Positions 11,001 to 63,451 of a stretch of DNA of 64,000 bases are shown piece by piece. Below the pieces are notes generated by a model that saw only the letters and a list, made by a program, of their open reading frames with translations, was not told the DNA's origin and did no database searches. The stretch covers positions 44,353 through 108,352 of the forward strand of contig CAJTUT010000002.1 of assembly GCA_910579455.1 (NCBI GenBank). Reading direction: 5' to 3'. The DNA is from an uncultured Bacilli bacterium. Its GTDB lineage: Bacteria > Bacillota_I > Bacilli_A > RF39 > UBA660. A program made the translations under genes and the position numbers. Position 1 is the stretch's first letter; each line of letters starts with the position of its first letter.

Positions 11001-14000
11001 TTGTCCTGTTATGGTTCCTTGATATATATTAATTGTGGCACTAGCACTTGAACTTACAAAAATTCCTTCAGAACCAGAGATTTCTCCATTATAAATATCT
11101 AGAGTTCCTCCATTTACAGTTATACCATTATATTTACTGATTATAGAAGGAAGTTTAGACTTATCATTTGCATCACCTATATTTACACGACCATTAGAGG
11201 TAAGCGCTGTAGACACCGATTCATAGTTTCCCTCTATCACATTAAGTATACCACTATTATTGGATATACAATATCTCCCTTTATAGGTTCCATTTTTAAT
11301 CACTAAATTACCTTTACCATTAATACTGTAATTCTGTACATCTATATTGGCATTATCTATGATTATTGTTCCGGAAGTATAAATACCGTTTTTACCTGTA
11401 GTAATGTTCACATCGACAATTTCTACATTTGCATCTGGTGACATTTTTATTGCGTAACTACCTGTCGATTGAAAATAACCACCATCAAGAATGAACTTGT
11501 CTGAACTAGATATATAAAGGGCATCACCTGAAATGGAATTAATATGAGAATTATTATCAATAGTTAATTCACCAGCATTTATATTTAACCCGTAACCACC
11601 TGTTGCATTAACATTTGAACGAATAATATTTAAATAACCACTGCTGTCTATTGTGTTTGTGTTTGTTGTCTGGCTTATAGTAATACCATCTAAACTTAAT
11701 GTAGCAGTGCTTTTGTTAGTTATTGTTTTAGATATTTTTAAGATTCCCTTTATTACACTACTATCTATTAATTTTAGATTTCCTGAATTGGTTACATCAT
11801 ATCCTGTTTCTACAGTGTAACCTGATACATCTATAATTACCTCTTTATTTTGGGCTAAATCAAGTGGATATGCTGCTTCGAAATCCCTTATTGCATAGAT
11901 CGTTCTATTTTTCTCAAAATCAGTATTCATATCTGTTATAAAGTCAATTGCATCTTGTAAATTAAAATAATAATTTGTACTAATAATTTCGTTACTATCC
12001 TCACTACTATAATTTACTGTTTTAGCTACTGCTCTTGTCAAGATTGAAGATGTCTCTTCTAAATATATTTTTTGATAACCATTACTATAATCGTGATCTG
12101 TAAACACTTCATATCCTTCTGGTTTGTTGTATACATAACCATCAAGTCCTAATTCTGCAGTTATTAATCCATCATAGAAATTCATTATTCCTTGCTGTTC
12201 TATTCCCTTTGTTGTTCCTTCTATACATGGATTATCCTTTAATACATCCCCATCATTTTCTCCTAAGGTTAATATAGAATGATTTACTATTGCCGTATTA
12301 GTTGTGTTCTTAATAGTACCATTGTTAAGAATTGTTAATGTACCATTATTTATTATTGTACTATCATTAACTCCTGTTACGGTTTTTCCATTCAAATCAA
12401 GAGTTATATCTTTTACATTTTCTACACTTTCTATTGTGTCTTTCAACATCACAATGGTATCGCCACTTTCTTTAGCAGCAGCCAATGCCTCTTCTAAACT
12501 TTTATAATATACCTTTTCTATTCTAGCAACAGCATCACTAGAACCTATTTCTGGTTTTTTTATGGTAATCGTATACTCCTTAGTTGCTGTAGAATAATTA
12601 TTAGTTGCTAAACAGGTCACTCGTATAGTTATTACAGTCCCAATAGCTAAATTGGAAAGATTTGATATTGTTACAGTTTTATCATCTAAAGTAACTTCCG
12701 CGTCAGTTTCCGTAACCTCTACTACACTAGTTTCTCCTCCATGTGAATCTACTATCATAAAAGAGTCACTATCTTGACCTTGATCAATGATTCTTTCATT
12801 AGAACTTAAATCAATATATCCCTGTGCACGTATAATGTCATAGGCCTTTCTATTATTATCTAATGTATAATTTTCAATACGTCCTCTTCCTCCTATAACA
12901 CTAGCTATAGAGACTTCTGATACATAACTACCTACATCAACTGCTTTTGACTGAATTAATTCTAATGCTTCGTTTTCTATTCGATCATTTAAACTATATT
13001 CATAATCTGGAGCTTGTCTTTCCCCATTATAAGAAAATTCAGTTGCCTCATCCCATGTAATATTCACCCTTTTAGGAGTGATAGTATGTGCAACACAACT
13101 TGATTGAAGAGGAAGACTCCCTTCCTTTCCTTCTAATACTGCTTTTACTGAATAATTACCTGCATCAATTGGAACAGATGACAACTCATTGCTACAATTT
13201 GTATCACTATAATATTGATAAGAAAGCTGTGAAGAATCTACACCTTCTGATACTTTTGCGTCATTTGCTTCTATTTCTCTACCAGTATATTCTTCAATTT
13301 TAGAATTTAAAGAGATACTTTCTGATCTTTTAAAAATTGCATATAGAGTCATATTCCCTGTAACAGTAGGAGGTGAGGTGAAACCGCTGGAAGAATCTTT
13401 ATTAGTGTGCCATCCTAAAAAGTCATATCCACTTTTTTTTGCAACTTCATCTAAATCAACAATATCCCCATATCTTAAAGTTTTATCTGGGATATTGCAA
13501 CTACCACCTGTTGTAGTACAATCATACTTTATCACATATTTTTTTTCTTTTGCCCTTGCAATTAGTTCCTTATTTCCATGAATTGTATACTCATCATTAG
13601 GATTTCCAATAACTGTATCATGATCATACCATTGACCACTAGCATAATGATCCCTACTTATAATATCTGGTAATGTCTTCGTACAATTATGACCCTCAAC
13701 AGTATAACGATCTCCATCCATTATTTGGTAGTTATCACACTGATCACTAGTAGATCCTATACTTTTAACAGACTCATCATCATTGGTATAAGAAACTTCC
13801 CATTTTCCTTTATATACCGCATAATACACTTCATTCTTTGTTGTAATGGAAGACTCAATATGACGATAATCAAATGGTCTAGTAGATAATCCATAATAAG
13901 TTCTATCATCCCCACCTTGTGATAAAAGAACCTCTTCTGGTACAGAAACTTCTTCTTCATTAATATGATAAGTCGCACTATCTTCATTTATTAACACAGA

Positions 14001-16196
14001 GTTAACCTTATTTGTTGAAAAAATGAACCTTTGTCCGTCGTTATAATAATAAAACTTAGTATCAATATTACCAGTATATACCGCATAATACACCTGATTA
14101 TTAGTAATGTTGGTATATATATCTTCCGTTTCCATATTGTTTAACTTAGAAGAAATTCCCTTATATGGTAGTCCCCTTAAGCCAATACTATTTACCACCT
14201 CATCAGAAGCTCTATAAGTACCCTTATTTTGATTATAAATTGTTTTATTTTCTGTTATAGATTCTACATTCCCATTATTATTATAATAGACCTTAATACT
14301 AATATCTTTTGAAGTAATTGCATAATATGTAGAATTATCAGATATCATTTTTTTTGTATTAATATCCCAGCTACCACTAGTATCGTTTTCATTTTGACTA
14401 AATCCTAGGATTTTATATCCTTCTCTTTCTATAGAAGGAGAAGATATTTCACAACTGGTAGCTTCTCCCCAAATCTCACAACTTTTAGTAGTAGAATCTA
14501 ATTGACTACCATTAGCAGAAAAGGTAACAGTTACTTCCTTATATACATTTACTGTAATATCAATCATAGATGAAGTAGCTGTATCTGTGACTGTTATAGT
14601 CGTAGTTCCAACAGAAACCCCCTGAATCACTCCATTCTTATCTACTGTTGCAATACCAGAATTACTACTCGCATATGATAAAGTACCCGTATTGTTGCTA
14701 ATATCCGCTTTTTTGGATTGCCCAACCTTTAAATTAATCTCATCGTCAGAAGAAGAAATATCACCAATTTTTTTTACTTCTATTTTTTTACTTACTACAT
14801 TATGGTTGGTATCATATACCCATAAATAATAAGTACCACTACTAGGAACCACGAATTCTTTATCATATTGATTCGTTACCTCCTCCAATTTAGTATAATT
14901 AGAAGTAGTTGGCATTTTATTATGATTACTTAAATAATAACCACCTATATTTCCCTCTTTTGCCATGATATGAACTGGAATATAGTACTTGTTATCCTTT
15001 CTGGTAATTGTCTCAGTAGTAATTTCAATACTTCCCTTAGGAATGATATGAACAACTCTAACAACACTATTAGTATTTCCCTTACTATCAATAACAATAT
15101 ACTTAACTGTATAAACCCCTTCAACAAAAGAGTTTACAGTTCCAACGGTAATGATCTTATCTGTCAAGACACCATCTTCTATATCCTCAGCACTAGCACC
15201 TAAATCTTGATAGGTTTCACCCTTTTTCAATTCTAAATTTGATTCCCCTACTAAATCAATAGTAGGAATGTGGTCATCAGAAGTAGGATTAACACTAACA
15301 CTTACAACTGTACACCCAATATTTCCATTTTTATCACTAACTCTATAATAAATATAGTAAATTCCTAATTTAGAAGGGTCCACATTATCAACGGTCATAG
15401 TATTTACTCCATCATAATATTCATATGTCTTAGTAACATTAGAAATATCAATACTCTGACCTGAACTATCCTTAATTTCATATGGAACAGGATCCGTAAA
15501 AGAATCATTCAAAGAGATATGAATAGACGTATTTGGAATGTTAATTACAGGGGCAACAAGATCATTAGCAGCACCGTTACTTTGTACAGCACTCACAACA
15601 ATTCTAGCGGCGTATGTTTTTCCTTGAACACTATTGTCAGCGTCCTCTCGTAGCCACATCTTAAGTTCATAATCTACCTCATCTTTTCCAGATTCTGCAC
15701 TTAAACTACCGCTGTTTAAAAGTAAACCATCAGCAAGAGATCTTGGACTTGTCCAACTCCCATCACTTAATTTAATACTATAATTAATATATTTTCTATC
15801 TAAAGTATTAGAAGATGCTGGAGTTTCTTCTAAACTAACATGATATTTAGCATCAATAGTTCCTGTATTTTTTATGGTAAAATGATAACCATCTGTACTC
15901 ATTCCTTCACTATCACTCATAGGTGCTAAGTTAGTCAAATGAATTTCATTTCCCTCCTCAAACTCAACCTTAAACGTTCCAGCCACAACTTCATGCTCAC
16001 TAGTATTATCAATTAAAACTTTAAATAATCCGTAGCTAGTGCCAATGACAGAAATTAATAAAAACATTACTAAAATAGCAATCTTTTTATATTCCCTTTT
16101 ATTCTTCCTTTTTAAATTATCATTATTGATTTCCACAGTTCTAAAACGATCACCAATTCTACCTTTATGAAAACTTTTTTTATTTTTGTTACTCAT
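8022..16196 (-). CDS. giant (2724 aa) secreted/surface multi-domain protein: N-terminal TasA/camelysin-like domain, 2x DUF5011 Ig-like, Big_2, Flg_new (Listeria-Bacteroides) repeats, >=4 parallel beta-helix modules
   Basis: One uninterrupted ORF. N-terminus: basic tail, TM, then IGTSYGLFKV...EVVAGTFKVEF..LTNLAPMSDSEG..FTIKNTGTIDAKY (TasA/CalY-like). Two DUF5011-like domains (DHIPTIDLVGESNLELKKGETYQDLGASAEDIEDGVLTD). Big_2 (TLSYASSNSGIATVDKNGVIQGVSVGTTTITV). Flg_new repeats (TVTFSANGSQLDS...EGYKILGF; KYVIKYDC...SGYDFLGWH). Recurrent beta-helix entry motifs (SLEEALAAAKESGDTIVMLKD...ITLDLNGKTV; GDTLTIIKDSK...ITLDLNGHHL) and Gly-rich G..I.N.G.L.I rungs. No C-terminal LPXTG. Confidence 0.8.
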   Translation of the reverse strand: MSNKNKKSFHKGRIGDRFRTVEINNDNLKRKNKREYKKIAILVMFLLISVIGTSYGLFKVLIDNTSEHEVVAGTFKVEFEEGNEIHLTNLAPMSDSEGMSTDGYHFTIKNTGTIDAKYHVSLEETPASSNTLDRKYINYSIKLSDGSWTSPRSLADGLLLNSGSLSAESGKDEVDYELKMWLREDADNSVQGKTYAARIVVSAVQSNGAANDLVAPVINIPNTSIHISLNDSFTDPVPYEIKDSSGQSIDISNVTKTYEYYDGVNTMTVDNVDPSKLGIYYIYYRVSDKNGNIGCTVVSVSVNPTSDDHIPTIDLVGESNLELKKGETYQDLGASAEDIEDGVLTDKIITVGTVNSFVEGVYTVKYIVIDSKGNTNSVVRVVHIIPKGSIEITTETITRKDNKYYIPVHIMAKEGNIGGYYLSNHNKMPTTSNYTKLEEVTNQYDKEFVVPSSGTYYLWVYDTNHNVVSKKIEVKKIGDISSSDDEINLKVGQSKKADISNNTGTLSYASSNSGIATVDKNGVIQGVSVGTTTITVTDTATSSMIDITVNVYKEVTVTFSANGSQLDSTTKSCEIWGEATSCEISSPSIEREGYKILGFSQNENDTSGSWDINTKKMISDNSTYYAITSKDISIKVYYNNNGNVESITENKTIYNQNKGTYRASDEVVNSIGLRGLPYKGISSKLNNMETEDIYTNITNNQVYYAVYTGNIDTKFYYYNDGQRFIFSTNKVNSVLINEDSATYHINEEEVSVPEEVLLSQGGDDRTYYGLSTRPFDYRHIESSITTKNEVYYAVYKGKWEVSYTNDDESVKSIGSTSDQCDNYQIMDGDRYTVEGHNCTKTLPDIISRDHYASGQWYDHDTVIGNPNDEYTIHGNKELIARAKEKKYVIKYDCTTTGGSCNIPDKTLRYGDIVDLDEVAKKSGYDFLGWHTNKDSSSGFTSPPTVTGNMTLYAIFKRSESISLNSKIEEYTGREIEANDAKVSEGVDSSQLSYQYYSDTNCSNELSSVPIDAGNYSVKAVLEGKEGSLPLQSSCVAHTITPKRVNITWDEATEFSYNGERQAPDYEYSLNDRIENEALELIQSKAVDVGSYVSEVSIASVIGGRGRIENYTLDNNRKAYDIIRAQGYIDLSSNERIIDQGQDSDSFMIVDSHGGETSVVEVTETDAEVTLDDKTVTISNLSNLAIGTVITIRVTCLATNNYSTATKEYTITIKKPEIGSSDAVARIEKVYYKSLEEALAAAKESGDTIVMLKDTIESVENVKDITLDLNGKTVTGVNDSTIINNGTLTILNNGTIKNTTNTAIVNHSILTLGENDGDVLKDNPCIEGTTKGIEQQGIMNFYDGLITAELGLDGYVYNKPEGYEVFTDHDYSNGYQKIYLEETSSILTRAVAKTVNYSSEDSNEIISTNYYFNLQDAIDFITDMNTDFEKNRTIYAIRDFEAAYPLDLAQNKEVIIDVSGYTVETGYDVTNSGNLKLIDSSVIKGILKISKTITNKSTATLSLDGITISQTTNTNTIDSSGYLNIIRSNVNATGGYGLNINAGELTIDNNSHINSISGDALYISSSDKFILDGGYFQSTGSYAIKMSPDANVEIVDVNITTGKNGIYTSGTIIIDNANIDVQNYSINGKGNLVIKNGTYKGRYCISNNSGILNVIEGNYESVSTALTSNGRVNIGDANDKSKLPSIISKYNGITVNGGTLDIYNGEISGSEGIFVSSSASATINIYQGTITGQSGDGIIMNNGNLNVYGGKIVGKTYGIETKNNANLVLGNKDDEVSTKSPEVIGEQYGLYSGGNGTISFYDGILKGTTAGHAGVITTLLDGYGIETGEETVDGILYSTSYLGKMTNFLKVGDEEYNTFKKALDAIDTEGTIEVIESVSIAEEVLIPNGKEITIDLGGKQLVNSKMITNEGKLRILDSSVEATGSYTNTSVVSGEYAIKSTNDLTVNSGTIKTTERASVIYLSGKGKITGGTYSAANGARVLYIATDIDITGGSYSSYSKHDTTISIATGKTVNITGVEIDRGGVTASNNANVTIENSNIYRVNPSAHERANITIKSGSYGSISSYGNTVIGDPEDATKVPNISNRITVNGGTLDIYNGEISGSEGIFVSSSASATINIYQGTITGQSGDGIIMNNGNLNVYGGKIVGKTYGIETKNNANLVLGNKDDEVSTKSPEVIGEQYGLYNGGNGTISFYDGALSGQIAGYYGAISKIPNDYVIDDDTQIIDEVMYHRNTLKATEYFVQNGEMQYKSLKTAVLESQNGDTLTIIKDSKVFEEVNTAGKNITLDLNGHHLRLNQAIMNEGTLSIRDNADQGKLSISTNSIIISNKGNLVLEDILLENLTTNYYLITNFANASIEANGTSFKGYSGIHNYAGANLVANDITLDVISSGIYNYSNCKISNSTLNKSDKKTGGYLFYNQTSEDHEALLRNNTYRVSGYYFGYRDIVNNSGELTIQGGTMYSTIDNNNQNAILNLLNTNIIYSYRTSDSDPIIRHRKGQLNIEGGSISSDGDITQYVGIVLSSDASIKNVAITSNTTVNSADATAIVINDNSNINIENTDFNIENFTSNYGISTQAAANLTLKNTNIYLRENTNVFSGRNITSAGIYSSNSDSNIKLESGRIDVHGRMAYGIYIDSGTVIMGIKDGSGTNYANVSIENPLIQATATVTGIGVIKGNGIFKYYDGRIIGSTNAKPETTTEVEPGYEVRFYTDEETGYEYCILEFME
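9613..9943. repeat. 331-bp intragenic direct repeat, copy A (about 99.7% identical to 10795..11125)
   Basis: Direct comparison of the sequence: 9613-9943 and 10795-11125 (offset 1182 bp) differ at a single position. Both encode ...EQYGLY(S/N)GGNGTISFYDG / ITVNGGTLDIYNGEISGSEGIFVSSSASATINIYQGTITGQSGDGIIMNNGNLNVYGGKIVGKTYGIETKNNANLVLGNKDDEVSTKSPEVIG. Confidence 0.9.
10795..11125. repeat. 331-bp intragenic direct repeat, copy B
   Basis: See copy A. Flanking sequence diverges immediately (9944 g versus 11126 c). Confidence 0.9.
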
Positions 16197-25061: not shown

Positions 25062-25138
25062 TGGTAGCGACGGAGGGAATCGAACCCCCGACCTTTCGGG
25101 TATGAACCGAACGCTCTAGCCAGCTGAGCTACATCGCC
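25062..25138 (-). tRNA. tRNA with anticodon CAT (elongator tRNA-Met, or tRNA-Ile2 if lysidinylated), CCA encoded
   Basis: The reverse complement folds as a cloverleaf: acceptor GGCGATG/CGTCGCT, D-arm GCTC-AGCTGGCTA-GAGC, anticodon stem TTCGG / loop TTCATAC / CCGAA, variable AGGTC, T-arm GGGGG-TTCGATT-CCCTC, discriminator A, CCA. Confidence 0.85.
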
Positions 25139-39103: not shown

Positions 39104-41131
39104 CTATTTTTCTCTCTCATAACTACATTTACTGCACTTTATCTTATCCTTCTTTTCAACCAAAATCTCCTCACATTCTGGACACTTCTCACCAGTTGGC
39201 TTATCCCAAGATGCAAATTTACATTTTGGATACTGGTTACATCCATAAAATACCTTACCACGCCTTGTAGCCTTTTCTATAACTCTTCCATCACAAAGTG
39301 GGCAATCCATAATTTCATGAATTTCCTTTTCCTCTTTTTTTACATGTTTGCACTCTGGATAATTACTACAAGCAACAAAATCGCCATATCTCCCCTTACG
39401 AATAACCAAAGGATTCCCGCATTCTGAACATATTTCCCCAGTCTCTACCGGAGCCTTTTTCTCCATTTCATCAAAGGCATTCTTGACTCTAGGTTCAAAC
39501 AATTTATAAAATGCCTCCAATACATGATTCCAAACCAAATTTCCTAATGCTATTTTGTCTAGATCATCCTCCATATTCTTCGTATATTCCACATTAATTA
39601 AGTCAGAAAAGAACTCTTGTAACTTATCTGTTGTCTCAATTCCTACCTCGGTAGGCTTAAACTTTTTTTCAACTAATTCTACATAGCCTCTTTCTTTAAT
39701 TGTATCCATAGTTTTTGCATAGGTAGAGGGTCTACCAATCCCTAACTCTTCCATCTCCTTAATTAGCTTTGCTTCTGTATATCTTGCAGGAGGTTTCGTA
39801 AAATGTTGCTCTTTTTCTACAATTTCTGTAGTTAATACCTCGTTTTCATGAATTTCTGGTAAAATTTTATCCTCGCTAGACTCATAATCTTTATATACTC
39901 TTAAATATCCATCAAAAATCAGAACTTGACCATTCACTTTAAATTTATAATCATGATTATCCAGTATAATTGTTGTTTGATTTACCTTAGCATCAGCCAT
40001 TAACGAAGCCAGTGCCCTTTTATAAATTAAACTATATAATTTAAATTCATCATTTGATAAATACCTTTTCACCTGAATTGGCTCTCTAAAAATACTAGTT
40101 GGTCTTATTGCTTCATGTGCATCTTGAACATTTTCTGTTTTCTTACTTTGTTTGATATACCCAACATAATCCTTACCATAATTTTCTATAATATATTGAT
40201 AGGCTGGCTTTGTAAAGTCCTCGCTTAATCTTGTAGAATCTGTTCTCATATACGTAATTAAACCTACTGTCTCATTCTCCAAATCAATACCCTCATATAA
40301 TTTTTGGGCAATACTCATAGTCTTTTTAGCTGAAAATCCCAATTTGGTAGAGGCCTCTTGCTGCAAGGTACTAGTAATAAAAGGAAATCTACTTTTTTTA
40401 CTTCTTTTTTTCTGCTCAATTTTCTCTACTAGATAATTTTTATCCAATTGTTCCAACACATGATCGCAATCTTGTTCACAGATGAGTTCAATATCTTCAT
40501 TTTGATATTTAAATAAATTAGCATCAAATGAATCAAATTTTGAAGTGATCGTCCAATACTCTTCTGGAATAAAGGCCTCAATATCTCTTTCCCTATCTAC
40601 AATTAATTTTAAGGCAACACTTTGAACACGTCCAGCTGACTTAGCACCTATTTTAGATTGTAAAAGTTTAGAAAGTCTGAATCCAATAATTCGATCCAAA
40701 ATTCTCCTTGTTTCTTGACTCCTAACTAAATGGTCATCAATCAAAGTGGGATGGTTAATAGCTTCAATTACCTTATCATGAGTAATTTCATTAAATAATA
40801 CCCTCTTATATTGATCATCAGGGATCCCTAAAGCATCTTTTAAATGCCAGGCAATGGCCTCCCCCTCACGATCTGGATCTGATGCAAGGTATACAATATC
40901 ACTATCCTTTACATCCTTTTTTAATTCCGTAATAATCCTCTTTTTTCCGGTAATTGGAACATAACTCGGTTGAAATCCATTTTCAATATCTACCCCTAAT
41001 CCAAATTTTCCAGAAGTGGCCAAATCTCTAATATGACCTTTAGAAGATACTACTTTAAAATCATTTCCTAAGTATTTCTCAATAGTCTTACTCTTACTGG
41101 GACTCTCCACTATCACTAAATGTTTACTCAT
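39104..41131 (-). CDS. topA: DNA topoisomerase I
   Basis: Toprim (KHLVIVESPSKSKTIEKYLG), active-site region (GFSAKKTMSIAQKLYEG, YMRTDSTR) and C-terminal C4 zinc ribbons (CSECGNPL...CSNYPEC; CPLCDG...CNQYPKC; CPEC...CSKC). The start at ATG 41131 has the RBS GAAGGA; the track start at 41182 is less likely. Confidence 0.9.
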   Translation of the reverse strand: MSKHLVIVESPSKSKTIEKYLGNDFKVVSSKGHIRDLATSGKFGLGVDIENGFQPSYVPITGKKRIITELKKDVKDSDIVYLASDPDREGEAIAWHLKDALGIPDDQYKRVLFNEITHDKVIEAINHPTLIDDHLVRSQETRRILDRIIGFRLSKLLQSKIGAKSAGRVQSVALKLIVDRERDIEAFIPEEYWTITSKFDSFDANLFKYQNEDIELICEQDCDHVLEQLDKNYLVEKIEQKKRSKKSRFPFITSTLQQEASTKLGFSAKKTMSIAQKLYEGIDLENETVGLITYMRTDSTRLSEDFTKPAYQYIIENYGKDYVGYIKQSKKTENVQDAHEAIRPTSIFREPIQVKRYLSNDEFKLYSLIYKRALASLMADAKVNQTTIILDNHDYKFKVNGQVLIFDGYLRVYKDYESSEDKILPEIHENEVLTTEIVEKEQHFTKPPARYTEAKLIKEMEELGIGRPSTYAKTMDTIKERGYVELVEKKFKPTEVGIETTDKLQEFFSDLINVEYTKNMEDDLDKIALGNLVWNHVLEAFYKLFEPRVKNAFDEMEKKAPVETGEICSECGNPLVIRKGRYGDFVACSNYPECKHVKKEEKEIHEIMDCPLCDGRVIEKATRRGKVFYGCNQYPKCKFASWDKPTGEKCPECEEILVEKKDKIKCSKCSYEREK

Positions 41132-41690
41132 GAAAACACATCCTTCTTTTATACTTATACAGATTAAATCTATTTTTGTCAATTATATTTTATACATCCT
41201 ACTATTATTATAGTATGTTTATCTCTTTTTTATCTTTAGTTTTCAATTAAATTTATCCGTTATAAATATTATAATTATATTCCTTCTCAGTATTTTTACT
41301 CAAGTAACAAATAGCAATTTTTTCTTTATATCACTTTTTGATGGTCAAACGTCTCTATACTCAATTCTGGTTTAGTAAACCTCTGTAATTTCCTTTCTTA
41401 ACTGATATAAATATATAATAGCTTTGCCAGTTGATGACAATGGCAAATGAGACAGGAAATTAACATACGAATCCGTATCATTAAATAAATAATTAAATAT
41501 AGTAGATAAATTAATTAATTTATATTCAACCTAATATAACTTTTAAGAGTTGTTCATGCGATATATCTGTATAAAAATAATAAAGTGCCATTTTTAATAA
41601 CAAATAGTAATCAATACAAAATTGTTTTATATAACTACCACTCTCAAATAGTAATATTTTTCCATAATCAAAGAAACATTCTACTATTGG

Positions 41691-42430
41691 TTAGGGCAAC
41701 CTAAATGTATCAAGCAAAGTCTGTTTTAATGAATCTATACTTTTTTGAAAAATCTTTCTTCCCTCTTTTTCATCAAAGAGTAGTTTGATTTCATTGATAT
41801 CAACTCTTGTGATTTTCCCATAATTTATACCGAAATTCATCAACTCCTCTATTGATAAAATTCCTTCATTAATCATAACTTTTCCCCTAAAACTTTACAT
41901 ATTATAATCAAAGATTAACGAAATGTCGATCTTTATCACTTGCCTTTATATGCTTTAAAAAAATGTTTTAGTGTATCATAAGAACCAAATAATTTTTCTA
42001 ACCTACCTGTAATATCCCCCCTACTAGAAATATCACTAAAAAGGAGTAAAGACTATAATTTAATTGGTTAAAATTTTAGAAACGTAATTCTTCTGTAGAT
42101 AAGTCATAGCAGGGATGAAACATGTCTATATCACTCATTTCTATTCTTGCCTTGGTTAAAAGTTCCAAATCAGCTTCCAAATTGCTAACATTCTCTAATA
42201 ATAAAGGAATAGGCATCTCTAAAATAGATCCATCCTTTTTGGAGACAATAACCTCATTTTGTAAGCAGCACAAACAGAATACATATCACTATCTTCTGTA
42301 CTATCTTTAATCTTAAATATATCAAGTGCTTGTAATATATTTTTTTAGGGCAGCTTTCTCATCTTATAATAAGAAGCTGGGTCCAGTGAAAAAACTTTAC
42401 TATCATAAAAAAATCTTTATGGCATAATCA
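41691..42430 (-). pseudogene. possible remnant of dprA/smf (DNA processing protein A), decayed
   Basis: A 1.4-kb stretch without an intact gene lies between rnhB and topA, where dprA normally sits in Bacillota. The short ORFs 42076..42273 (LLENVSNLEADLELL...) and 41691..41876 (SIEELMNFGINYGKITRVDINEIKLLFDEKEGRKIF) faintly resemble the DprA C-terminal region and its winged-helix domain, respectively. Inference only. Confidence 0.25.
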
Positions 42431-42560
42431 CCATTATCAGATTCGTATTTCCAAACACTAAAATTTACCCCATTTCCTAAATAAAATAAATCCTTCTATT
42501 CCTCCGATGGGGCTGTATTATAACATATAAAGATCTAAAACACAAGATAAAAGTTAAGCT

Positions 42561-43541
42561 TTATAACCCTTGTTTCTGTATATAATCACTTATTGGCTTA
42601 TAACTTTTTCTATGATCATCCAAAATGCCATATTTCTCAATTGCCTCTAAGTGTTTTTTAGTAGGATACCCCTTATTATTTTTAAAATCATACATTGGAT
42701 ATTTTTTATCTAACTCTAGCAGCATTCTATCCCTTTCTACTTTTGCAATTACACTAGCAGCAGATATAGTAATACTCTTTAAATCCCCCTTAATAATAGA
42801 AGTAGTTGGAATATTTACATTTAATGGCATAGCATCAATTAAAATGTGTTCCGGTTTAATATTGCAATTACTAATCGCTTCTTTCATTGCAAGCTTCGTA
42901 GCCTCATAAATATTGATTTCATCAATTTTCTTCTCATCAATAATTCCAACACCAATAGAGATAGCCTGTTTTTTAATTTTTTCATAAAATTGTTCTCTTT
43001 TTTTCTCACTTAGTTTTTTAGAATCTGTCAATCCCTCTAAATCAAATTTATCAGGCAAAATCACACAGGCAGCAACAACTGGACCCACTAATGGTCCACG
43101 CCCTACCTCGTCTACCCCTGCAATAAGACTAATTCCCTGCCCTTTTAATTTTTTCTCATATCGATAATTATCCTTACTACACAAGTATAAATCTAATCTT
43201 TCAATTATTTTTTTATCCTGCTTTCTATTTAATCTTCGTTTTATCTCTAAACATTTTTCTATATTCATACATTGATATCCATCAACATAAGTCATATCTT
43301 TTGGATAGTATAAATGATCACTGATTTCTATCGCATCATGATACTTATGTCCTAATAAAAATGCTCTTATTTTGGTATTCCAAGGAATTTGATTATAGAA
43401 TTTTGTACTACAACTTAAATCAATATTTAATGTTTTTTCTATGATCCCTTGTAAGACTAAACTAGCATCGCTAATTACAATATAAGAATTTTTATCTAGT
43501 TCTAATTCACTTAGAGCATTCAATATTTCTTCCTTATTCAT
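42561..43541 (-). CDS. rnhB: ribonuclease HII with an ~140-aa N-terminal extension
   Basis: The C-terminal 185 aa are a canonical RNase HII: [21 protein letters not shown] (DEDD motif 1), [14 protein letters not shown]..., [11 protein letters not shown]. The N-terminal 140 aa ([20 protein letters not shown]...) have no recognisable motif. It follows rbgA, as in B. subtilis ylqF-rnhB. Confidence 0.8.
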
Positions 43542-43558
43542 TATTTCACCTTATCTAT

Positions 43559-44449
43559 TTATGTTAATCTATCTAGTGTAATATTTCCTAAATACCCATT
43601 TTTTAAATCATTAATAATAATATTTGATACTTTATCATAATCAGCTATTCCACCACGAGACAAGGCACCCCTCGATTTTCCAATCATATCAAATGTTTCT
43701 ATCAAATCCTCATCTAACTTTTGAATGCCATAACGCCTTTCTAACTCTTGTGGGTATAACTCTATCATTTTTTTTAAGATAAAACAAGCAAGATCGAGAT
43801 TATCGATTACTTCTTCTTTTATAGAAGAAAGTGCTGCTAGTATATGTGCATTGTCTTGATTTTCCAACTTAGGCCAAAGTATTCCTGGAGAATCTAAAAG
43901 TTCTATCTCTTTATTAATTCTTATCCACGAAAGATTTTTAGTAATACCCGGCCTATTTCCAACACTTGCTGATTTTTTTCCTACCAAACGATTAATAAGT
44001 GTTGATTTTCCTACATTAGGCACCCCAATAATCAAGACCCTAACACTTCTAGATTTAAGACCCTTCTCCAGCCTTTTTCTATTTTCATTTGCAACCATTT
44101 CTTTACTTTTTTCTATAATTTTTGATGTATCATTTCCATTCATTAAATCTACTGGTATTACAGTATAATTTTTATCTTCATAATATTTAATTATTTTATC
44201 TGTTTCAAACTTATCACAAATATCATATTTTGTCATAATGAGTACTCTTTTTTTATTTCCTATCAACTCATCCATATCTACTATTTTAGAAGATATAGGC
44301 ATACGGGAATCAATTACTTCATAAACTATATCAATTAGATTTAGTTTTTCTTTTATTTCTCTTTTGGTTTTGGCCATATGTCCTGGATACCAGTTGATTA
44401 CACTTTTTTGTAACCCCCCCTGTGTTTCATTATTGTTCATTAAAATCAC
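43559..44449 (-). CDS. rbgA: ribosome biogenesis GTPase A (RbgA/YlqF)
   Basis: Circularly permuted GTPase: NWYPGHMAKT, G4 TKYD, G1 GVPNVGKSTLINRL, G3 DSPGILWP; 296 aa. Confidence 0.85.
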   Translation of the reverse strand: MILMNNNETQGGLQKSVINWYPGHMAKTKREIKEKLNLIDIVYEVIDSRMPISSKIVDMDELIGNKKRVLIMTKYDICDKFETDKIIKYYEDKNYTVIPVDLMNGNDTSKIIEKSKEMVANENRKRLEKGLKSRSVRVLIIGVPNVGKSTLINRLVGKKSASVGNRPGITKNLSWIRINKEIELLDSPGILWPKLENQDNAHILAALSSIKEEVIDNLDLACFILKKMIELYPQELERRYGIQKLDEDLIETFDMIGKSRGALSRGGIADYDKVSNIIINDLKNGYLGNITLDRLT

Positions 44450-46881: not shown

Positions 46882-47422
46882 CTATTTCCCTTTTATCATT
46901 TCTACTACTTGAATATGTATTCTTCCATTAGTAACTAACAAAGTGTCAATATTTTGTCTTTTCATACCTTTTAAATTAGTAACTTTTCCACCCGCTTCTT
47001 GTACTAATAATTTACCAGCAGCTGAACTTAATCCAATACTTGGTTTAACATTTAATACCCCATCTATTTTACCAGAAGCACACCATGCTAATTCTAATGC
47101 AGCAGATACTATCAATCTTAACCCTCTAACATTTGGCACTAACTTTTCTTCTACATCTATCACATCTTTAATTTGCATATCATTATAATGCGATGTTAAA
47201 CAAAAGGAGATTTTCTCCATTTTCTTCAGAATAGATAGAATGTTCAGGAAATTTATGACTTATAAATTCTATTATTCTATCATCTATATATTTATCTGTA
47301 GAAGTAACTATATCATTTAATTCTTTGTAAGAAATTTCATTTTTTAAATTTTTACTTTCTTCATATGCCTGAATTGTAATAGTCGATAATTCCTTTAATA
47401 AATCAAAATTAAAATCACTCAT
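46882..47422 (-). pseudogene. inositol monophosphatase family gene, frameshifted/truncated
   Basis: ORF 47183..47422 (…NDIVTSTDKYIDDRIIEFISHKFPEHSIYSEENGEN) matches the IMPase N-terminal region. The overlapping ORF 46882..47220, in another frame (…IVSAALELAWCASGKIDGVLNVKPSIGLSSAAGKLLVQEAGGKVTN), matches the IMPase C-terminus. Together these give ~190 aa against ~260 expected, and the metal-binding DPIDGT block appears to be missing. Confidence 0.5.
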
Positions 47423-58561: not shown

Positions 58562-59989
58562 TTAATATTGAATTCCCCATACTACATGGTGCTTAGCATC
58601 TTCTCCGCAACAAACACACTTCTCGTCTATTTTCTCTGCCTTTTCCAAAATACATCTAGATTTACAACCTCTTATTTCTTTAATCTTTTCTTCGCATTCT
58701 ACCTTTCCACACCACATAGCATGGATAAATCCTGGCTGTTTATTTAAAATAGATGCCATCTGATCTAAATTATGAGCGTTGAATGTTAGATCATCCCTTC
58801 TTTTTTTAGCACGTTCATACATATCCCTTTGAATGATATCTAAAATCTCTTTAGTGTATTCTAAGATATTGGTATTAATAGGAACTACTAATTTTTCTCT
58901 AGTGTCACGCCTTACAAAAGTAACCTGATTTTTTTCTAAATCCCTAGCACCAATTTCAATTCTTACAGGAATTCCATTCACCTCTGCTTCTGCAAACTTA
59001 AAGCCAGGAGATTTCTCTGTATCATCTATATAAGTAGTAATATCATTCTCCAAGAAAAGATTTTGATACTCCAAAGCCAACTGATTAACCCTTTCATCTT
59101 TTCCAATTGGGATAATTACAACCTGTTTGGGTGCTATCTTTGGAGGCAATACAAGTCCATAATCATCACTATGTACCATAATTAAACCACCAATCATACG
59201 TGTTGTTGTTCCCCAAGAGGTTTGATAAGGAAAAGTCTCCTGATTATTTCTATCAGTAAAGGTAACTTCATAAGCCTTAGAAAATTTTTGTCCAAAAAAG
59301 TGAGAAGTCCCAGCCTGAAGAGCAACTCCATTATACATCAAAGCTTCATTTGTAAGTGTATATTCAGCACCTGCAAACTTTTCTTTTTCTGTTTTTTTAC
59401 CACGAATCGAAGGAATCGCTAAAATCTCATTGAAAAACCAATGATAAACTCCCATCATTTGATCAGTTTCTTTCTCTGCTTCTTCCTTAGTCTCATGCAA
59501 AGTATGACCTTCCTGCCATAAAAATTCTCTACTTCTTAAAAAGGGTCTAGTTTCTTTTTCCCATCTTAATACATTACACCACTGATTATATAATTTTGGT
59601 AAATCCCTGTAAGATTTAATATGAGTTCTATAATAATCACAAAATAGTGTTTCACTAGTAGGTCGAATACAAAGTCTCTCCTCTAAAGGTTTTTGTCCTC
59701 CTTCAGTTACCCAAGCAACCTCAGGGGCAAATCCTTCTACTAGTTCCCCTTCTTTTTTCAAAAGATTCTCAGGAATTAGGGAAGGCATTTGACAATTTAC
59801 ATGACCAAGTCTTTTAAACTCCTTATCTAGTATCTCTTGCATCTTCTCCCAAATCGCATATCCATTTGGCTCTATGACAATACAGCCCTTTACAGATGAG
59901 TAATCAGCAAGATGAGCAGCACGTACAATATCAGTATACCATTTTGCAAAGTCATCTTCTCTTTTCGTAATCGCCTCATTATTTTTCAT
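58562..59989 (-). CDS. proS: proline--tRNA ligase, archaeal/eukaryotic-type (short form without an editing insertion)
   Basis: 475 aa; FAKWYTDIVRAAHLADYSSVKGCIVIEPNGYAIWE, class II motifs (FRPTSETL; GGLIMVHSDDYGL), a C-terminal zinc-binding CxxC...CxxC (CGKVEC...CVCCGE) and a C-terminal Y. Confidence 0.9.
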   Translation of the reverse strand: MKNNEAITKREDDFAKWYTDIVRAAHLADYSSVKGCIVIEPNGYAIWEKMQEILDKEFKRLGHVNCQMPSLIPENLLKKEGELVEGFAPEVAWVTEGGQKPLEERLCIRPTSETLFCDYYRTHIKSYRDLPKLYNQWCNVLRWEKETRPFLRSREFLWQEGHTLHETKEEAEKETDQMMGVYHWFFNEILAIPSIRGKKTEKEKFAGAEYTLTNEALMYNGVALQAGTSHFFGQKFSKAYEVTFTDRNNQETFPYQTSWGTTTRMIGGLIMVHSDDYGLVLPPKIAPKQVVIIPIGKDERVNQLALEYQNLFLENDITTYIDDTEKSPGFKFAEAEVNGIPVRIEIGARDLEKNQVTFVRRDTREKLVVPINTNILEYTKEILDIIQRDMYERAKKRRDDLTFNAHNLDQMASILNKQPGFIHAMWCGKVECEEKIKEIRGCKSRCILEKAEKIDEKCVCCGEDAKHHVVWGIQY

Positions 59990-60198
59990 ATCTTTCCTCC
60001 CCTCTTTTTTTGATATACAATACTTGTAGAATGAGAATTTTTCTTCCCATCTTTTCTATCATCTTTCAATGCAGCCATCAATTCCTCATAACTATCAAAT
60101 AAAGGCATCCCTGTTAAATCACGATATCGCTGCAACTCTTTATTAGTATACTTTTTTTGATGAGATTCATAAAAAGAATGGGTAAAAGAATTTCCCAT
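59986..60198 (-). CDS. hypothetical small protein
   Basis: 70-aa ORF overlapping the proS start by 4 bp; no motif. Confidence 0.35.
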   Translation of the reverse strand: MGNSFTHSFYESHQKKYTNKELQRYRDLTGMPLFDSYEELMAALKDDRKDGKKNSHSTSIVYQKKRGGKI

Positions 60199-60213
60199 AA
60201 TAACTCAACCTCC

Positions 60214-60758
60214 TTATAACGAAAATATATATTTTTCTAACACAGTATAAACTTCCTCCCTTGGAACTAAACTCTTGGTCTTTCTAAGTTGTCTCAATTC
60301 TGATATGGAGCAAAACTTAATTGATTGAACTTCCTCTTCTTGTATTTTAATATTTTCAATTTCTAAATCATTTCTCCTTAAAATAAATAAATCATAAAAT
60401 TGTCTTTCTATAAAATCATCAGCAAACTTCTGTTCTTTTCTAAAGGAATACATATATCTAAAATCTTTAATATCTATATGATACCCTAAGTCGATACTTA
60501 CTTCTTCATTAATTTCACGAGCCGCAGCAGACAAAGCATCTTGACCTGATGCGATATGTCCTGCAACCGAGACATCCCACATATTCGCATTTTTATCTTT
60601 GTTTTTACTCCTCTGTTGCAGTAACACTTCGTTTTTTTCATTAATAATCAAAACAATAATCGACCTATGCCAGTACCCCCCCTATGGATTTCTTTTCTTG
60701 GTAAAACTTTTCCAGTTGACATTCCATTTTCATCTAATACATCAATCATTTCTTCCAT
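60214..60758 (-). pseudogene. NUDIX hydrolase gene interrupted by a frameshift at a G7 homopolymer (C7 on the plus strand at 60676-60682)
   Basis: From ATG 60758 (RBS AAGGAGA) the frame reads MEEMIDVLDENGMSTGKVLPRKEIHRGG and then stops. Adding one G to the run gives ...HRGGYWHRSIIVLIINEKNEVLLQQRS..., which is exactly continuous with the downstream ORF 60214..60651 carrying the Nudix box GHIASGQDALSAAAREINEEVSI. Confidence 0.6.
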
Positions 60759-60770
60759 ATAAAATTCTCC

Positions 60771-62090
60771 TTATGGTTCAATTCTATTAGGGCCTCTAAA
60801 TAAGAATTGGGTTTCTTTAATGTTAGGAAGTCCTAAAAGTAACATCGTAAATCGATCAATTCCAATACCAAATCCACCATGTGGAGGACATCCATATTTG
60901 AAAAACTCTAAATAAAACTCTACATCCTTAGAAAGTCCTTTTTCTTTTGCATTTTTTAATATTTCTTCATATCTATGCTCTCTTTGAGCACCTGTTGTAA
61001 TTTCTACTCCTCTAAATAATAAGTCATACCCTTGTAAAATTCCTTTCTCATCTCTCATATGATAAAAGGCACGTTTTTCTGCTGGATAATTGGTAACAAA
61101 TAAGAATTCATGATGAAATTTGTCTTTTGATAATTTGTAACATAACTTTTCAGCTTCTGTTGTTAAATCATTTTTCTCAGATTCTTCTACATGATAAGAA
61201 TACCTTTCTTCCAGCTCCCTATATACCTCCTCTAAACTCATTACTGGAAAAGGAAGTGTGGGAATAATTAAATCAGAACCAAATAAATCCTTAATTTGAT
61301 CACCCATTTCTTCTTTTACTTTTGAAAATGATTGATGAATCATTTCTGACTCTAACTCCATCACATCCTGAAAACTATCAATATAAGAAAATTCAACATC
61401 AAAACTAGTATATTCAGTAGCATGTCTATTGGTGTTAGAGTTTTCTGCTCGAAAAGCGGGTGCTACTTCAAAAATTTTAGACATTCCACTAGCCATTGCC
61501 ATTTGTTTATAAAACTGAGGCGACTGAGCAAGATAGGCTTTTCTATCAAAATACTTCACTTCAAACACTTCAGAACCTGATTCACTTGCAGCACCTATTA
61601 ACTTTGGAGTATGAATTTCTATAAAATCTTTTTGATAAAGATACTCTCTCATATACTGAACCAACTTATTTTGAATTTGAAAGATTGCTAAGTTTTTATC
61701 ATTTCTTAAATCAATAAAACGATAATCAAGTCTAGTATCTAAATTGACACCTTCTAAATTTTTATAAGTAAAGGGTAGTTCATCTAAACTTTTACTAGTA
61801 ACTTCAATCGATTCTGGTATTAACTCCATCCCATTTAATTTTACTTTAGGAGCCTCCATCAAAACCCCAGAAACTTTTACTGTACTTTCTAGCGGTAGAT
61901 TACTAATTAGTTCTACCATTTCTTTATTTTTCTCCTCTGACTTTTCAATCGTTACTTGAACTTTACCAGTTGAGTCTCTTAATATTACAAACTGTACCCA
62001 CTGTAAATCTCTGATATTATCTACAAATCCACTAAATTCTATTTGTTTTCCATAATATTGATGTAAATCTTTCGCATCTATTTTTTTCAT
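60771..62090 (-). CDS. aspS: aspartate--tRNA ligase, archaeal-type short form (AspRS type 2; asparaginyl alternative not excluded)
   Basis: 439 aa; an N-terminal OB anticodon-binding domain; class II motifs FRAENSNTNRHATEYTSFDVE and GGFGIGIDRFTMLLLG. It lies immediately downstream of hisS, the conserved hisS-aspS operon. Confidence 0.7.
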   Translation of the reverse strand: MKKIDAKDLHQYYGKQIEFSGFVDNIRDLQWVQFVILRDSTGKVQVTIEKSEEKNKEMVELISNLPLESTVKVSGVLMEAPKVKLNGMELIPESIEVTSKSLDELPFTYKNLEGVNLDTRLDYRFIDLRNDKNLAIFQIQNKLVQYMREYLYQKDFIEIHTPKLIGAASESGSEVFEVKYFDRKAYLAQSPQFYKQMAMASGMSKIFEVAPAFRAENSNTNRHATEYTSFDVEFSYIDSFQDVMELESEMIHQSFSKVKEEMGDQIKDLFGSDLIIPTLPFPVMSLEEVYRELEERYSYHVEESEKNDLTTEAEKLCYKLSKDKFHHEFLFVTNYPAEKRAFYHMRDEKGILQGYDLLFRGVEITTGAQREHRYEEILKNAKEKGLSKDVEFYLEFFKYGCPPHGGFGIGIDRFTMLLLGLPNIKETQFLFRGPNRIEP

Positions 62091-62101
62091 CCTATCACCT
62101 C

Positions 62102-63451
62102 TTAATCATCATGACAGTGACAATCTCCACTGCATTCATGATCATTTATAGAACAATCAGAACAACTACAGTCATCTCCCATTTCATCTACTAACTTCTC
62201 ATCTAAATAGTAAATAATGGCATCTAATGAGATTACTTCTTCTTCCTTTGTTTGATTATTTTTAATCTTAATTTCATAATTATTTAAATCTTCCTCGTTT
62301 AAAACAGCAATATATTTAGCTTTTAGTCTATCCGCTTGCTTAAATTGAGCTTTTAAACTACGAGAAGTATACTCTGTATCCACAACAAATCCAGCTAATC
62401 GTAACTCTTGAGATAGATAAGCGGCATATTTTTTTTCATCCTCTGATACATACAACAAGAACAAATCAATATCTTCTTTTATAGGAAGCTCAACATTCTC
62501 TAATTCTAATGCCTTAACAAGACGTCCTATTCCTGATGCAAACCCAATAGCAGGAGTACTTGGTCCACCTAAAGTTTCACAAAGACCATTATAACGTCCT
62601 CCTCCTCCTAATACATTGTTAGAGCCAAATCCTTTGATATCTGCCTCAATTTCAAATACTGTATGATTATAATAGTCAAGACCTCTAACAATTTTTGGAT
62701 CTACTTCATAATCAATTTGTAATAAATCTAAAAATTCACAAACAGAAGAAAACCTTTTCTTGCTTTCCTCGTTTAAATACTCAATAGTAGTTGGTGCCTT
62801 TTTTAAAATTTCATTATTTTGATCTACTTTACAGTCTAGTATTCTTAATGGATTTTTAGAAAAACGCTCTTTACAGTCCTCACAAAAATCATTAATATGA
62901 GGAGAAAAATATTGAATTAATTCCTCCCTATATTTCATTCTTGATTCCTGATCTCCTAAAGAATTTATTTTCACCTTAATTCCTTTTAATCCTAATAACT
63001 TATAAATTTGAACAGCAAGAGAAATTACCTCAGCATCTACCATTGGGTCATCACTACCTAAAACTTCCATACCAAATTGAGTAAGTTCTCTATCCCTTCC
63101 TGATTGCGGTCTCTCATATCGATACATGGTTCCATTATAATAAACCTTAACAGGATTTTGCTCCCCATACATTTTGTTTTCAAGATAGCTTCTAACAACT
63201 CCAGCAGTTCCTTCTGGGCGTAATGTCATTTCCCTTTTTCCACGATCTAGAAAATCATAAGTTTCCTTGGTTACAATATCCGTAGAATCTCCCACTCCTC
63301 TATGAAAAAGTTCAGTAGATTCAAAAAGTGGAGTACGAATATATCCATAGTGATATTTTTCCATTACGGAATCCACAATCTGCTCAACATATTTCCATAC
63401 TTTTGCTTCATGCCCATAAAGATCAATACATCCTTTTGGTTTCGTTATCAT
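62102..63451 (-). CDS. hisS: histidine--tRNA ligase with a Cys/His/Asp-rich C-terminal tail
   Basis: MITKPKGCIDLYGHEAKVWKYVE...RTPLFESTELF, motif 2 MTLRPEGTAGVVRS, the HisA/HisB signature, motif 3 GGGGRYNGL; then a ~25-aa tail GDDCSCSDCSINDHECSGDCHCHDD. Confidence 0.9.
   Translation of the reverse strand: MITKPKGCIDLYGHEAKVWKYVEQIVDSVMEKYHYGYIRTPLFESTELFHRGVGDSTDIVTKETYDFLDRGKREMTLRPEGTAGVVRSYLENKMYGEQNPVKVYYNGTMYRYERPQSGRDRELTQFGMEVLGSDDPMVDAEVISLAVQIYKLLGLKGIKVKINSLGDQESRMKYREELIQYFSPHINDFCEDCKERFSKNPLRILDCKVDQNNEILKKAPTTIEYLNEESKKRFSSVCEFLDLLQIDYEVDPKIVRGLDYYNHTVFEIEADIKGFGSNNVLGGGGRYNGLCETLGGPSTPAIGFASGIGRLVKALELENVELPIKEDIDLFLLYVSEDEKKYAAYLSQELRLAGFVVDTEYTSRSLKAQFKQADRLKAKYIAVLNEEDLNNYEIKIKNNQTKEEEVISLDAIIYYLDEKLVDEMGDDCSCSDCSINDHECSGDCHCHDD

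Follow-up and report, generated by a model that had tools for sequence, protein, structure and literature searches.

A poly-G tract of varying length in a Nudix hydrolase gene of uncultured mouse-gut Bacilli, and its probable role as an ON/OFF switch

A Nudix gene divided by a run of Gs

In a 64,000-nucleotide stretch of DNA from an uncultured Bacilli bacterium (positions 44,353 to 108,352 of contig CAJTUT010000002.1, assembly GCA_910579455.1; here called the window), the coding sequence for a putative Nudix hydrolase lies on the minus strand within an operon of aminoacyl-tRNA synthetase genes, and its 5′ part contains a homopolymer that breaks the reading frame. The C7 of the plus strand is G7 on the coding strand, and direct reading of the junction, set out in codons of the frame of the start codon, gives GAA ATC CAT AGG GGG GGT ACT GGC ATA GGT CGA TTA TTG TTT TGA. 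Translation in this frame yields MEEMIDVLDENGMSTGKVLPRKEIHRGGTGIGRLLF before it meets the TGA. With one G more, the reading passes through ...EIHRGGYWHRSIIVLIINEKNEVLLQQRS... and stays open as far as a TAA at 60214, the derived product of 181 amino acids (aa) starting MEEMIDVLDENGMSTGKVLPRKEIHRGGYWHRSIIVLIINEK and ending YIFSL (Table 1). An earlier, sequence-only reading of this DNA had located the C7 inside the 5′ part of a Nudix gene, had the G7 frame from a well-signalled ATG terminate after 36 codons and had G8 join it seamlessly to the open reading frame (ORF) with the Nudix box, and on each of these points it proved correct.

The same reading had considered a 7-mer G/C tract conspicuous at about 29% GC. 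The base composition is as it said (29.3% for the window), but by composition alone the run is only modestly unusual, there being two G/C runs of at least 7 against an estimated ~0.44 expected; its significance comes from comparative data. Codon usage makes the run more unusual, since in the window GGG accounts for 12.5% of Gly codons and AGG for 20% of Arg codons, and GGG-GGG is used for one of 61 Gly-Gly pairs in the 41 other window ORFs. That TGA might be read as sense under a variant genetic code was considered and rejected: table 11 leaves long conserved ORFs intact, and TGA is the stop of 6 of 41 window ORFs.

The repaired protein, i.e. that of the G8 version, matches the Pfam NUDIX profile (PF00293) over residues 31-159 with 66.1 bits (cut-off 21.1; E = 4e-18), and aligns without gaps and at full length to more than 100 full-length homologues of 180-183 aa. 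H25, G28, W30, H31 and R32, around the junction, are invariant in 51 homologues. So are R81, E82, E85 and E86 of the Nudix box, which keeps REINEE, though it departs from the canonical GX5EX7REUXEEXGU in having Q for E at position 7 and S for G at position 22. An AlphaFold model of the repaired protein (predicted local distance difference test score, pLDDT, 85.6; predicted template modelling score, pTM, 0.79) has a Nudix fold of the type seen in YfcD and type 1 isopentenyl-diphosphate isomerase (IDI). Its best PDB matches are to human IPP isomerase, 2dho and 2i6k (TM-score on query length 0.74-0.83), and to E. coli YfcD, 2fkb (0.77 on the query, 0.86 on the target); Foldseek E-values against YfcD and IDI (2fkb, 1hx3, 2dho, 2i6k) are 1e-10 to 1e-12, and weak sequence hits agree with the structural matches. 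The layout of the H...WHR / GH motifs is shared with these proteins, whereas sequence identity to them is only 19-23%, and scores fall far below the NCBIfam equivalog cut-offs (IDI, 62.2 bits against 127 for NF002995; TIGR02150, 44.7 against 105.8; YfcD, 42 against 152). Identification as type 1 isopentenyl-diphosphate isomerase was rejected, in view of the missed equivalog scores and of a sequence VSVAGH in place of NSxCxHP, with Ala66 where the catalytic Cys would be. The name accordingly adopted here is an uncharacterised putative Nudix hydrolase, IDI/YfcD-like. In the model the tract encodes a turn, R26-G27-G28, between a helix (21-27) and a strand (30-39), a predicted location that fits the tolerance of RGG, GGG and GGGG variants described below.

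Reinitiation at the TTG at 60651, a further suggestion of the sequence-only reading, would give the 145-aa product that is annotated as a 'NUDIX domain-containing protein' (MCI8347606.1). As a route to a useful Nudix protein it is not supported. Lineages B, C and F (defined below) have TTA at this codon, the only Shine-Dalgarno-like sequence, AGG, sits 12 nt upstream, and the product would be without residues 1-37, that is without strands 4-8 and 14-20, most of strand 30-39, the helix and the five invariant residues H25, G28, W30, H31 and R32. Because of this loss, and because the TTG is not conserved as a start, the 145-aa annotation is regarded as an artefact of the OFF state, the name used below for tract lengths that break the frame.

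Table 1. Coordinates of the Nudix gene parts and of the operon in the window
Feature	Position	Strand	Basis or remark
Poly-G tract, G7, with A 60683 before it	60676..60682	-	direct reading; in-frame form encodes the Arg26-Gly27-Gly28 turn; G7 gives OFF
5′ coding part, codons 1-25 (MEEMIDVLDENGMSTGKVLPRKEIH), start ATG 60758	60684..60758	-	aligns with N-termini of 181-183-aa homologues
Shine-Dalgarno AAGGAG, 8-nt spacer to ATG 60758-60756; overlaps aspS stop TAA 60773-60771	60767..60772	-	direct reading
Premature TGA, end of G7-frame ORF after 36 codons	60648..60650	-	direct reading
3′ coding part in the other frame, residues 29-181 (YWHRSIIV...YIFSL) and TAA	60214..60675	-	NUDIX match of repaired protein
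TTG (Leu38 of intact protein), first possible start of annotated 145-aa ORF; overlaps the TGA stop	60649..60651	-	direct reading
Nudix box region, residues 67-89 (GHIASGQDALSAAAREINEEVSI)	60493..60561	-	direct reading
Operon hisS-aspS-Nudix-orf70-proS, tightly packed/overlapping	58562..63451	-	ORF list
hisS	62102..63451	-	operon member
aspS	60771..62090	-	operon member
70-aa ORF	59986..60198	-	between Nudix gene and proS
proS	58562..59989	-	operon member

Replication of G7 and tract length in relatives

Contigs of the lineage to which the window belongs, lineage A, were gathered by the exact window AspRS protein, a search unbiased as to the tract, and by the exact 145-aa ORF. The 19 further independent contigs so found (L002-L020) derive from two NCBI metagenome-assembled genomes (GCA_022791375.1 and GCA_949514455.1), from ENA and from many Logan assemblies of different SRA runs. 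A+G7 (AG7) is present in all 19, and 18 of them are base-for-base identical to the window, the other having a single mismatch. That the true sequence is G8 and the gene intact, with G7 a product of sequencing or assembly, was a concern of the sequence-only reading, and homopolymer indels are indeed a common type of error, with some of the related contigs having only 2.5-4x coverage. For the window this explanation can nonetheless be dismissed with near certainty. The split allele is not an assembly error, because it recurs in the 19 further contigs, which represent at least 15 runs and three pipelines; in lineage B, AG7 (at least 41 contigs) and AG8 (at least 19 contigs) are each repeatedly found; and the exact G8-repaired protein of the window allele has no occurrence in a collection of ~15 billion proteins.

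The second G7 run of the window (minus strand, 44420-44414) provides a control. Lying at codons 7-9 (Q-G-G) of rbgA/ylqF (43559-44440), it leaves the frame intact; the exact 293-aa product of this gene occurs on 11 contigs, and its 90% cluster includes no variant. G7 runs are thus not as a rule miscalled in these data. (That run is within a short N-terminal extension ahead of the conserved INWYPGHMAK of this ribosome-biogenesis GTPase gene.) Two of the ten AspRS-anchored lineage-A contigs end close to the Nudix tract, L007 stopping 6 nt after it and L011 22 nt after it, and these breaks could reflect either an assembly-graph break from length heterogeneity within the sample or poor homopolymer coverage.

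For the relatives, tract state is expressed as the nucleotides between the His25 codon, CAT, and the Tyr29 codon, TAC. Nine or 12 nt (AG8, G9, G12) keep the frame and give 181-182 aa (ON); 7, 8, 10 or 11 nt (AG6, AG7, G8, AG9, G10, G11) break it, with a stop after ~31-36 codons (OFF). Lineage A, the window clone, has AG7 only. Lineage B (L021-L035 and L045) has AG8 in ten contigs, AG7 in five and AG6 in one, and lineage C (L001 and L036-L044) has G8 in two, G9 in one, G10 in five, G11 in one and G12 in one. Lineage E (L241, L242) has AGGGGGGA (AG6A) and lineage F (L243, L244) AG9. One of the AG7 contigs of lineage B, L045, is from the GTDB species representative MGBC131677, an 'uncultured Bacilli bacterium' of the mouse gut catalogue. 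Gene order around the Nudix gene is identical across all related contigs.

Within lineages B and C, length differs between contigs that are otherwise the same. Alignment of 15 lineage-B contigs over up to 6.5 kb (6546 columns) has 4 single-nucleotide polymorphism (SNP) columns and one indel site, which is the tract (AG8 in 10, AG7 in 4, AG6 in 1), and AG8 and AG7 occur on one SNP haplotype: L021 (AG8) and L031 (AG7) are 100% identical over 6414 nt outside the tract, and L045 is likewise 100% identical. In lineage C, G8, G10, G11 and G12 are on one haplotype (L036, with G10, and L041, with G8, being 100% identical over 5575 nt) and G9 (L001) is on a variant of that haplotype. Runs of A8, T8 and T9 in the same flanks are invariant except for one A8-to-A9 change, in L037. 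With 4 SNPs in 6546 columns, a minimum of two length changes at a single 8-nt site corresponds, by rough estimate, to an excess of at least a few hundred-fold. Replication is good for AG7 in lineage A, for AG7 and AG8 in lineage B and for G8 and G10 in lineage C. The change in L037 (~1236-1297; ERZ14863992) is the only other homopolymer indel in the flank alignments; it splits hisS into 360 + 114 aa and may be a sequencing error.

The 90% cluster around the nearest full-length homologue, P0001, includes ~29 ON contigs and ~68 OFF contigs, so that both states, with the gene otherwise intact, are common in one cluster. ON forms are of 181 or 182 aa and read ...IHRGGYWHR..., ...IHGGGYWHR... or ...IHGGGGYWHR...; OFF forms appear as gene calls cut down to 137, 145 or 157 aa, accompanied by leader peptides of 36 aa. 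ON and OFF members with identical remaining protein are P0123/P0122, P0130/P0125/P0128 and P0129/P0132, with P0001 being the same as the second of these groups from residue 45.

Selection on the gene and the age of the tract

Selection was assessed as the ratio of non-synonymous to synonymous substitution (dN/dS) by the Nei-Gojobori method, with the tract removed, for pairs of lineages A, B, C, E and F (hisS values against the window were left out, there being a length offset or misalignment). For the Nudix gene the ratio is 0.04-0.22 in all lineage pairs, and it is low on both sides of the tract, 0.09-0.20 for codons 1-25 and 0.05-0.16 for codons 29-181; for comparison, aspS gives 0.04-0.10 and proS 0.06-0.13. 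No other stop or indel in the gene was seen in ~60 contigs. Even between two OFF alleles, those of A and E, there are 7 synonymous and 7 non-synonymous changes where ~2.6 and 11.4 would be the neutral expectation (binomial p ~0.008, an estimate). The marks of a decaying pseudogene, dN/dS near 1 and several lesions, are not what is found, the tract being the sole lesion in all contigs. Judged by these substitutions the Nudix gene does not appear to be decaying or long dead, because the constraint is evident both 5′ and 3′ of the tract. Either the gene would have been in frame for much of that time, or OFF alleles keep some function.

Divergence is uneven along the operon. Between B and C (L021 and L036) synonymous divergence (dS) is 0.43 for the Nudix gene but 0.06-0.07 for aspS and proS; between A and E (the window and L241) it is 0.055 for aspS, 0.073 for the Nudix gene and 0.38 for proS. 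Such discordance suggests recombination or allele exchange around the locus. The 70-aa ORF between the Nudix gene and proS has no Pfam match, overlaps the proS start, has dN/dS of ~0.3 and is intact outside lineage F, where it is called as two pieces of 42 + 43 aa (L243, 3433-3702).

Lineages B and C are 97.8% identical in the region and the window is ~89% identical to both. All five lineages (A, B, C, E and F) have the tract. The site in 79 other GTDB species is occupied by a fixed 12-nt in-frame sequence, mostly AAAAAAGGATTA (CAT AAA AAA GGA TTA, H-K-K-G-L); among them one has an in-frame AG7 (L055) and one G6 (L050), and none is shifted. Because those species hold the fixed in-frame site, the long G run is specific to this small clade, and it probably grew from common AAA-AGG-GGx variants. 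Within the clade, the rare-codon tract persists in all six alleles across dS of up to ~0.75, and in five of the six it is without synonymous interruption. The sequence-only reading had looked to a split gene conserved in relatives as grounds for giving up a switch; in the sense intended that is not the situation, since split and intact alleles alternate among relatives, and the 79 more distant species have the gene whole. In several more distant species (L054, L058 and L072; also L061 and L078) there are two copies of the H..G.WHR motif ~0.6-0.8 kb apart, the match in L061 and L078 spanning 782 nt against ~540, and these are probably tandem paralogues of the Nudix gene. A pattern scan of the JGI metagenome collection with the tract and its flanks returned 116 stretches with no true homologue among them, the four G-rich ones being unrelated.

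A different way to account for constraint on out-of-frame alleles is recoding, with the OFF allele still giving full-length protein via -1 ribosomal frameshifting on G_GGG_GGU or via RNA polymerase slippage. The zero-frame AG G_GGG_GGU fits X_XXY_YYZ, and a -1 shift there would give exactly ...HRGGYWHR...; the purifying selection that persists between OFF alleles A and E, and the stability of the OFF state in the window clone, are also as such a process would have them. As a programmed -1 frameshift site the heptamer was nevertheless rejected. RNA folding of the sequence beyond the tract gives no stable structure (minimum free energy -9.8 kcal/mol, z = -0.10 against shuffles; z = -0.51 for 201 nt), Rfam finds nothing downstream of the tract, tract length varies among relatives and the 79 other species are unshifted. 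The correction needed also differs among alleles, +1 nt for AG7 and G8 against -1 or +2 nt for G10 and AG9, with no single shift conserved, and intact alleles coexist on the same haplotypes. Efficient transcriptional slippage in bacteria is documented mainly for A/T runs of at least 9. Tamas and colleagues, in PNAS in 2008, are said to have described insect endosymbiont genes frameshifted at poly(A) tracts and rescued by transcriptional slippage. The resemblance is in an out-of-frame homopolymer under purifying selection; there, however, the runs are of A, about 9-10 or more, and the out-of-frame DNA is conserved, whereas here the run is of G, of variable length, and intact alleles coexist. 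Taken together, recoding in either form is very improbable for the Nudix tract.

The tract as a contingency locus

Homopolymer slippage is a familiar basis of phase variation in a few cultured pathogens, where it mostly affects surface or restriction-modification genes. For the locus considered here, the comparative evidence makes it likely, with good though not full confidence, that G7 is a real, heritable state of a slippage-prone, hypermutable poly-G tract that would toggle the Nudix gene ON and OFF, the window holding a stable OFF allele. By analogy with the known behaviour of such tracts, slipped-strand mispairing at replication would add or remove Gs; lengths restoring 9 or 12 nt would allow synthesis of the full 181-182-aa enzyme, and with 7, 8, 10 or 11 nt translation would end at ~31-36 codons. 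The presence of the in-frame G12 on the same haplotype as G8, G10 and G11, with G9 on its variant, implies that both expansions and contractions have taken place, in so far as contig sequences can tell. Across the species complex, the locus would act as a simple sequence repeat (SSR) contingency, or phase-variable, locus, with the window clone fixed in OFF. The slipped-strand switch proposed in the sequence-only reading accordingly has its support at the level of the population, where sister lineages have runs of 6-12 G, with both frame states on identical haplotypes, in a gene under purifying selection.

A cut-off in use for putative phase-variable SSRs is poly-G/C of at least 7 (PMC6321876), and here a G7 is within an ORF, at codons 26-28, where change of length alters the frame of expression. 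SSR loci have mutability 100-10,000-fold above background (PMC11868660); the excess at the Nudix tract, a rough estimate, is within that range, the localised hypermutation being evident in lineages B and C and not within the window clone. A contingency locus is defined by localised hypermutation, with reversibility not required (PMC11868660, Table 1), and the locus accords with that definition, its phenotype being deduced only from the loss of residues 1-37 with their invariant residues. Phase variation in the strict sense is defined by rate and reversibility as well, and for that the locus is a candidate.

Several considerations weigh against this interpretation. The window clone is invariant, 20 of 20 sequences having G7, and taken alone it is operationally a revertible frameshift pseudogene that may be locked off. 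ON/OFF state tends to follow study or cohort, so switching is not fast enough to mix every sample. Certain tract states are known from single contigs, AG6, G9 (2.6x), G11 (3.8x) and G12 (2.5x), for which homopolymer errors are possible, and in that of G11 there is also a T-to-G difference next to the tract. Phase-variable genes are not usually of the present kind, a gene for a cytoplasmic Nudix hydrolase placed among those for aminoacyl-tRNA synthetases, and a non-adaptive mutational hotspot would yield the same pattern.

The last point leads to recurrent non-adaptive pseudogenisation, i.e. a hotspot in a dispensable gene, with OFF alleles heading for loss and the window copy freshly dead. What leans that way is the uniformly OFF window clone, the excess of OFF over ON contigs in the protein cluster, and allele E, where a G-to-A interruption has arisen inside the tract while it is out of frame and looks like the onset of decay; another decayed gene of the window, comprising fragments of an inositol monophosphatase gene, would be a sign of ongoing gene loss. 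What leans toward a functional, revertible locus is the low dN/dS 5′ and 3′ of the tract in all comparisons, even that of A with E (both OFF), the persistence of rare GGG codons, uninterrupted synonymously in most alleles, and the in-frame length that shares its haplotype with out-of-frame ones, which is easier to explain if length moves both ways. Further, there is no second disabling mutation in any contig, and the gene is conserved and intact in the 79 other species. Recurrent pseudogenisation is on this evidence unlikely, though it retains some weight. The fresh pseudogene that the sequence-only reading had offered as its other option holds to the extent that the window clone has been seen only in OFF, but not in that the gene is otherwise constrained and has intact alleles in sister lineages.

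The decayed gene just mentioned, at 46882-47422 on the minus strand, comprises overlapping ORFs of 79 + 112 aa that match positions 8-73 and 163-248 of the 271 of the Pfam Inositol_P profile, and is a genuine decayed pseudogene of the inositol-monophosphatase family with an internal deletion and a frameshift. A 1.4-kb gap at 41183-42560, between topA (39104-41182) and rnhB (42561-43541), has only ORFs of 61 and 65 aa, neither with a Pfam match, and a C6 at 42016-42021; it may be what is left of a lost gene. In Firmicutes dprA is often located between topA and rnhB. Over the whole window (1-64000), 42 of the 43 ORFs of at least 120 aa lie on the minus strand, and C greatly outnumbers G on the plus strand (12055 against 6675). 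An ORF of 2724 aa is at 8022-16196. Rfam at gathering thresholds gave a single tRNA (25065-25138) and no T-box leader upstream of the hisS-aspS-proS operon.

Among known systems, the intragenic poly-G/C genes of Campylobacter jejuni are the nearest to the Nudix tract in mechanism and genome composition: a low-GC genome (~30%), poly-G of at least 7 within ORFs, frame-dependent ON and OFF, and tract length that differs among near-identical genomes, with longer tracts appearing more variable (PMC6321876). The C. jejuni genes, however, are mostly surface-structure modifying or restriction-modification genes, whereas the present gene, part of the hisS-aspS-...-proS operon, is for a cytoplasmic IDI/YfcD-like Nudix hydrolase, the host belongs to an uncultured Bacilli lineage of the mouse gut, and the tract of the window clone is at the lower limit, G7, and invariant. 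Closer in type of gene is the 7C tract of Mycobacterium tuberculosis glpK, likewise a 7-nt G/C homopolymer in the gene for a cytoplasmic metabolic enzyme, with natural frameshift OFF variants common; the reversible frameshift there confers transient drug tolerance and is classed as phase variation (PMC11868660). Reversion and phenotype have been shown experimentally for glpK, whereas the Nudix tract is known from sequences alone. M. tuberculosis is also GC-rich, making such runs less conspicuous, and the Nudix tract differs in expanding to G12 and in having in-frame length variants. A literature search found, in the papers that held all of its terms, no direct precedent for a phase-variable Nudix gene.

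Going a step further, it can be proposed, tentatively and with more doubt than conviction, that selection maintains the tract as a bet-hedging switch for a cytoplasmic Nudix hydrolase, a case of glpK-type metabolic phase variation in a commensal and one seen only via metagenomes. Retention of rare GGG codons to dS of ~0.75, together with the mismatch between the divergence of the Nudix gene and that of its flanks, is as expected under fluctuating selection.

Public metagenome assemblies are by themselves sufficient to reveal the signature of phase variation in an uncultured gut commensal, and in the gene for a conserved cytoplasmic enzyme. Should the switching prove to be selected, metabolic bet-hedging as in glpK would reach into the commensal microbiota, and the switch would point to a condition in which a widespread, uncharacterised Nudix family is costly.

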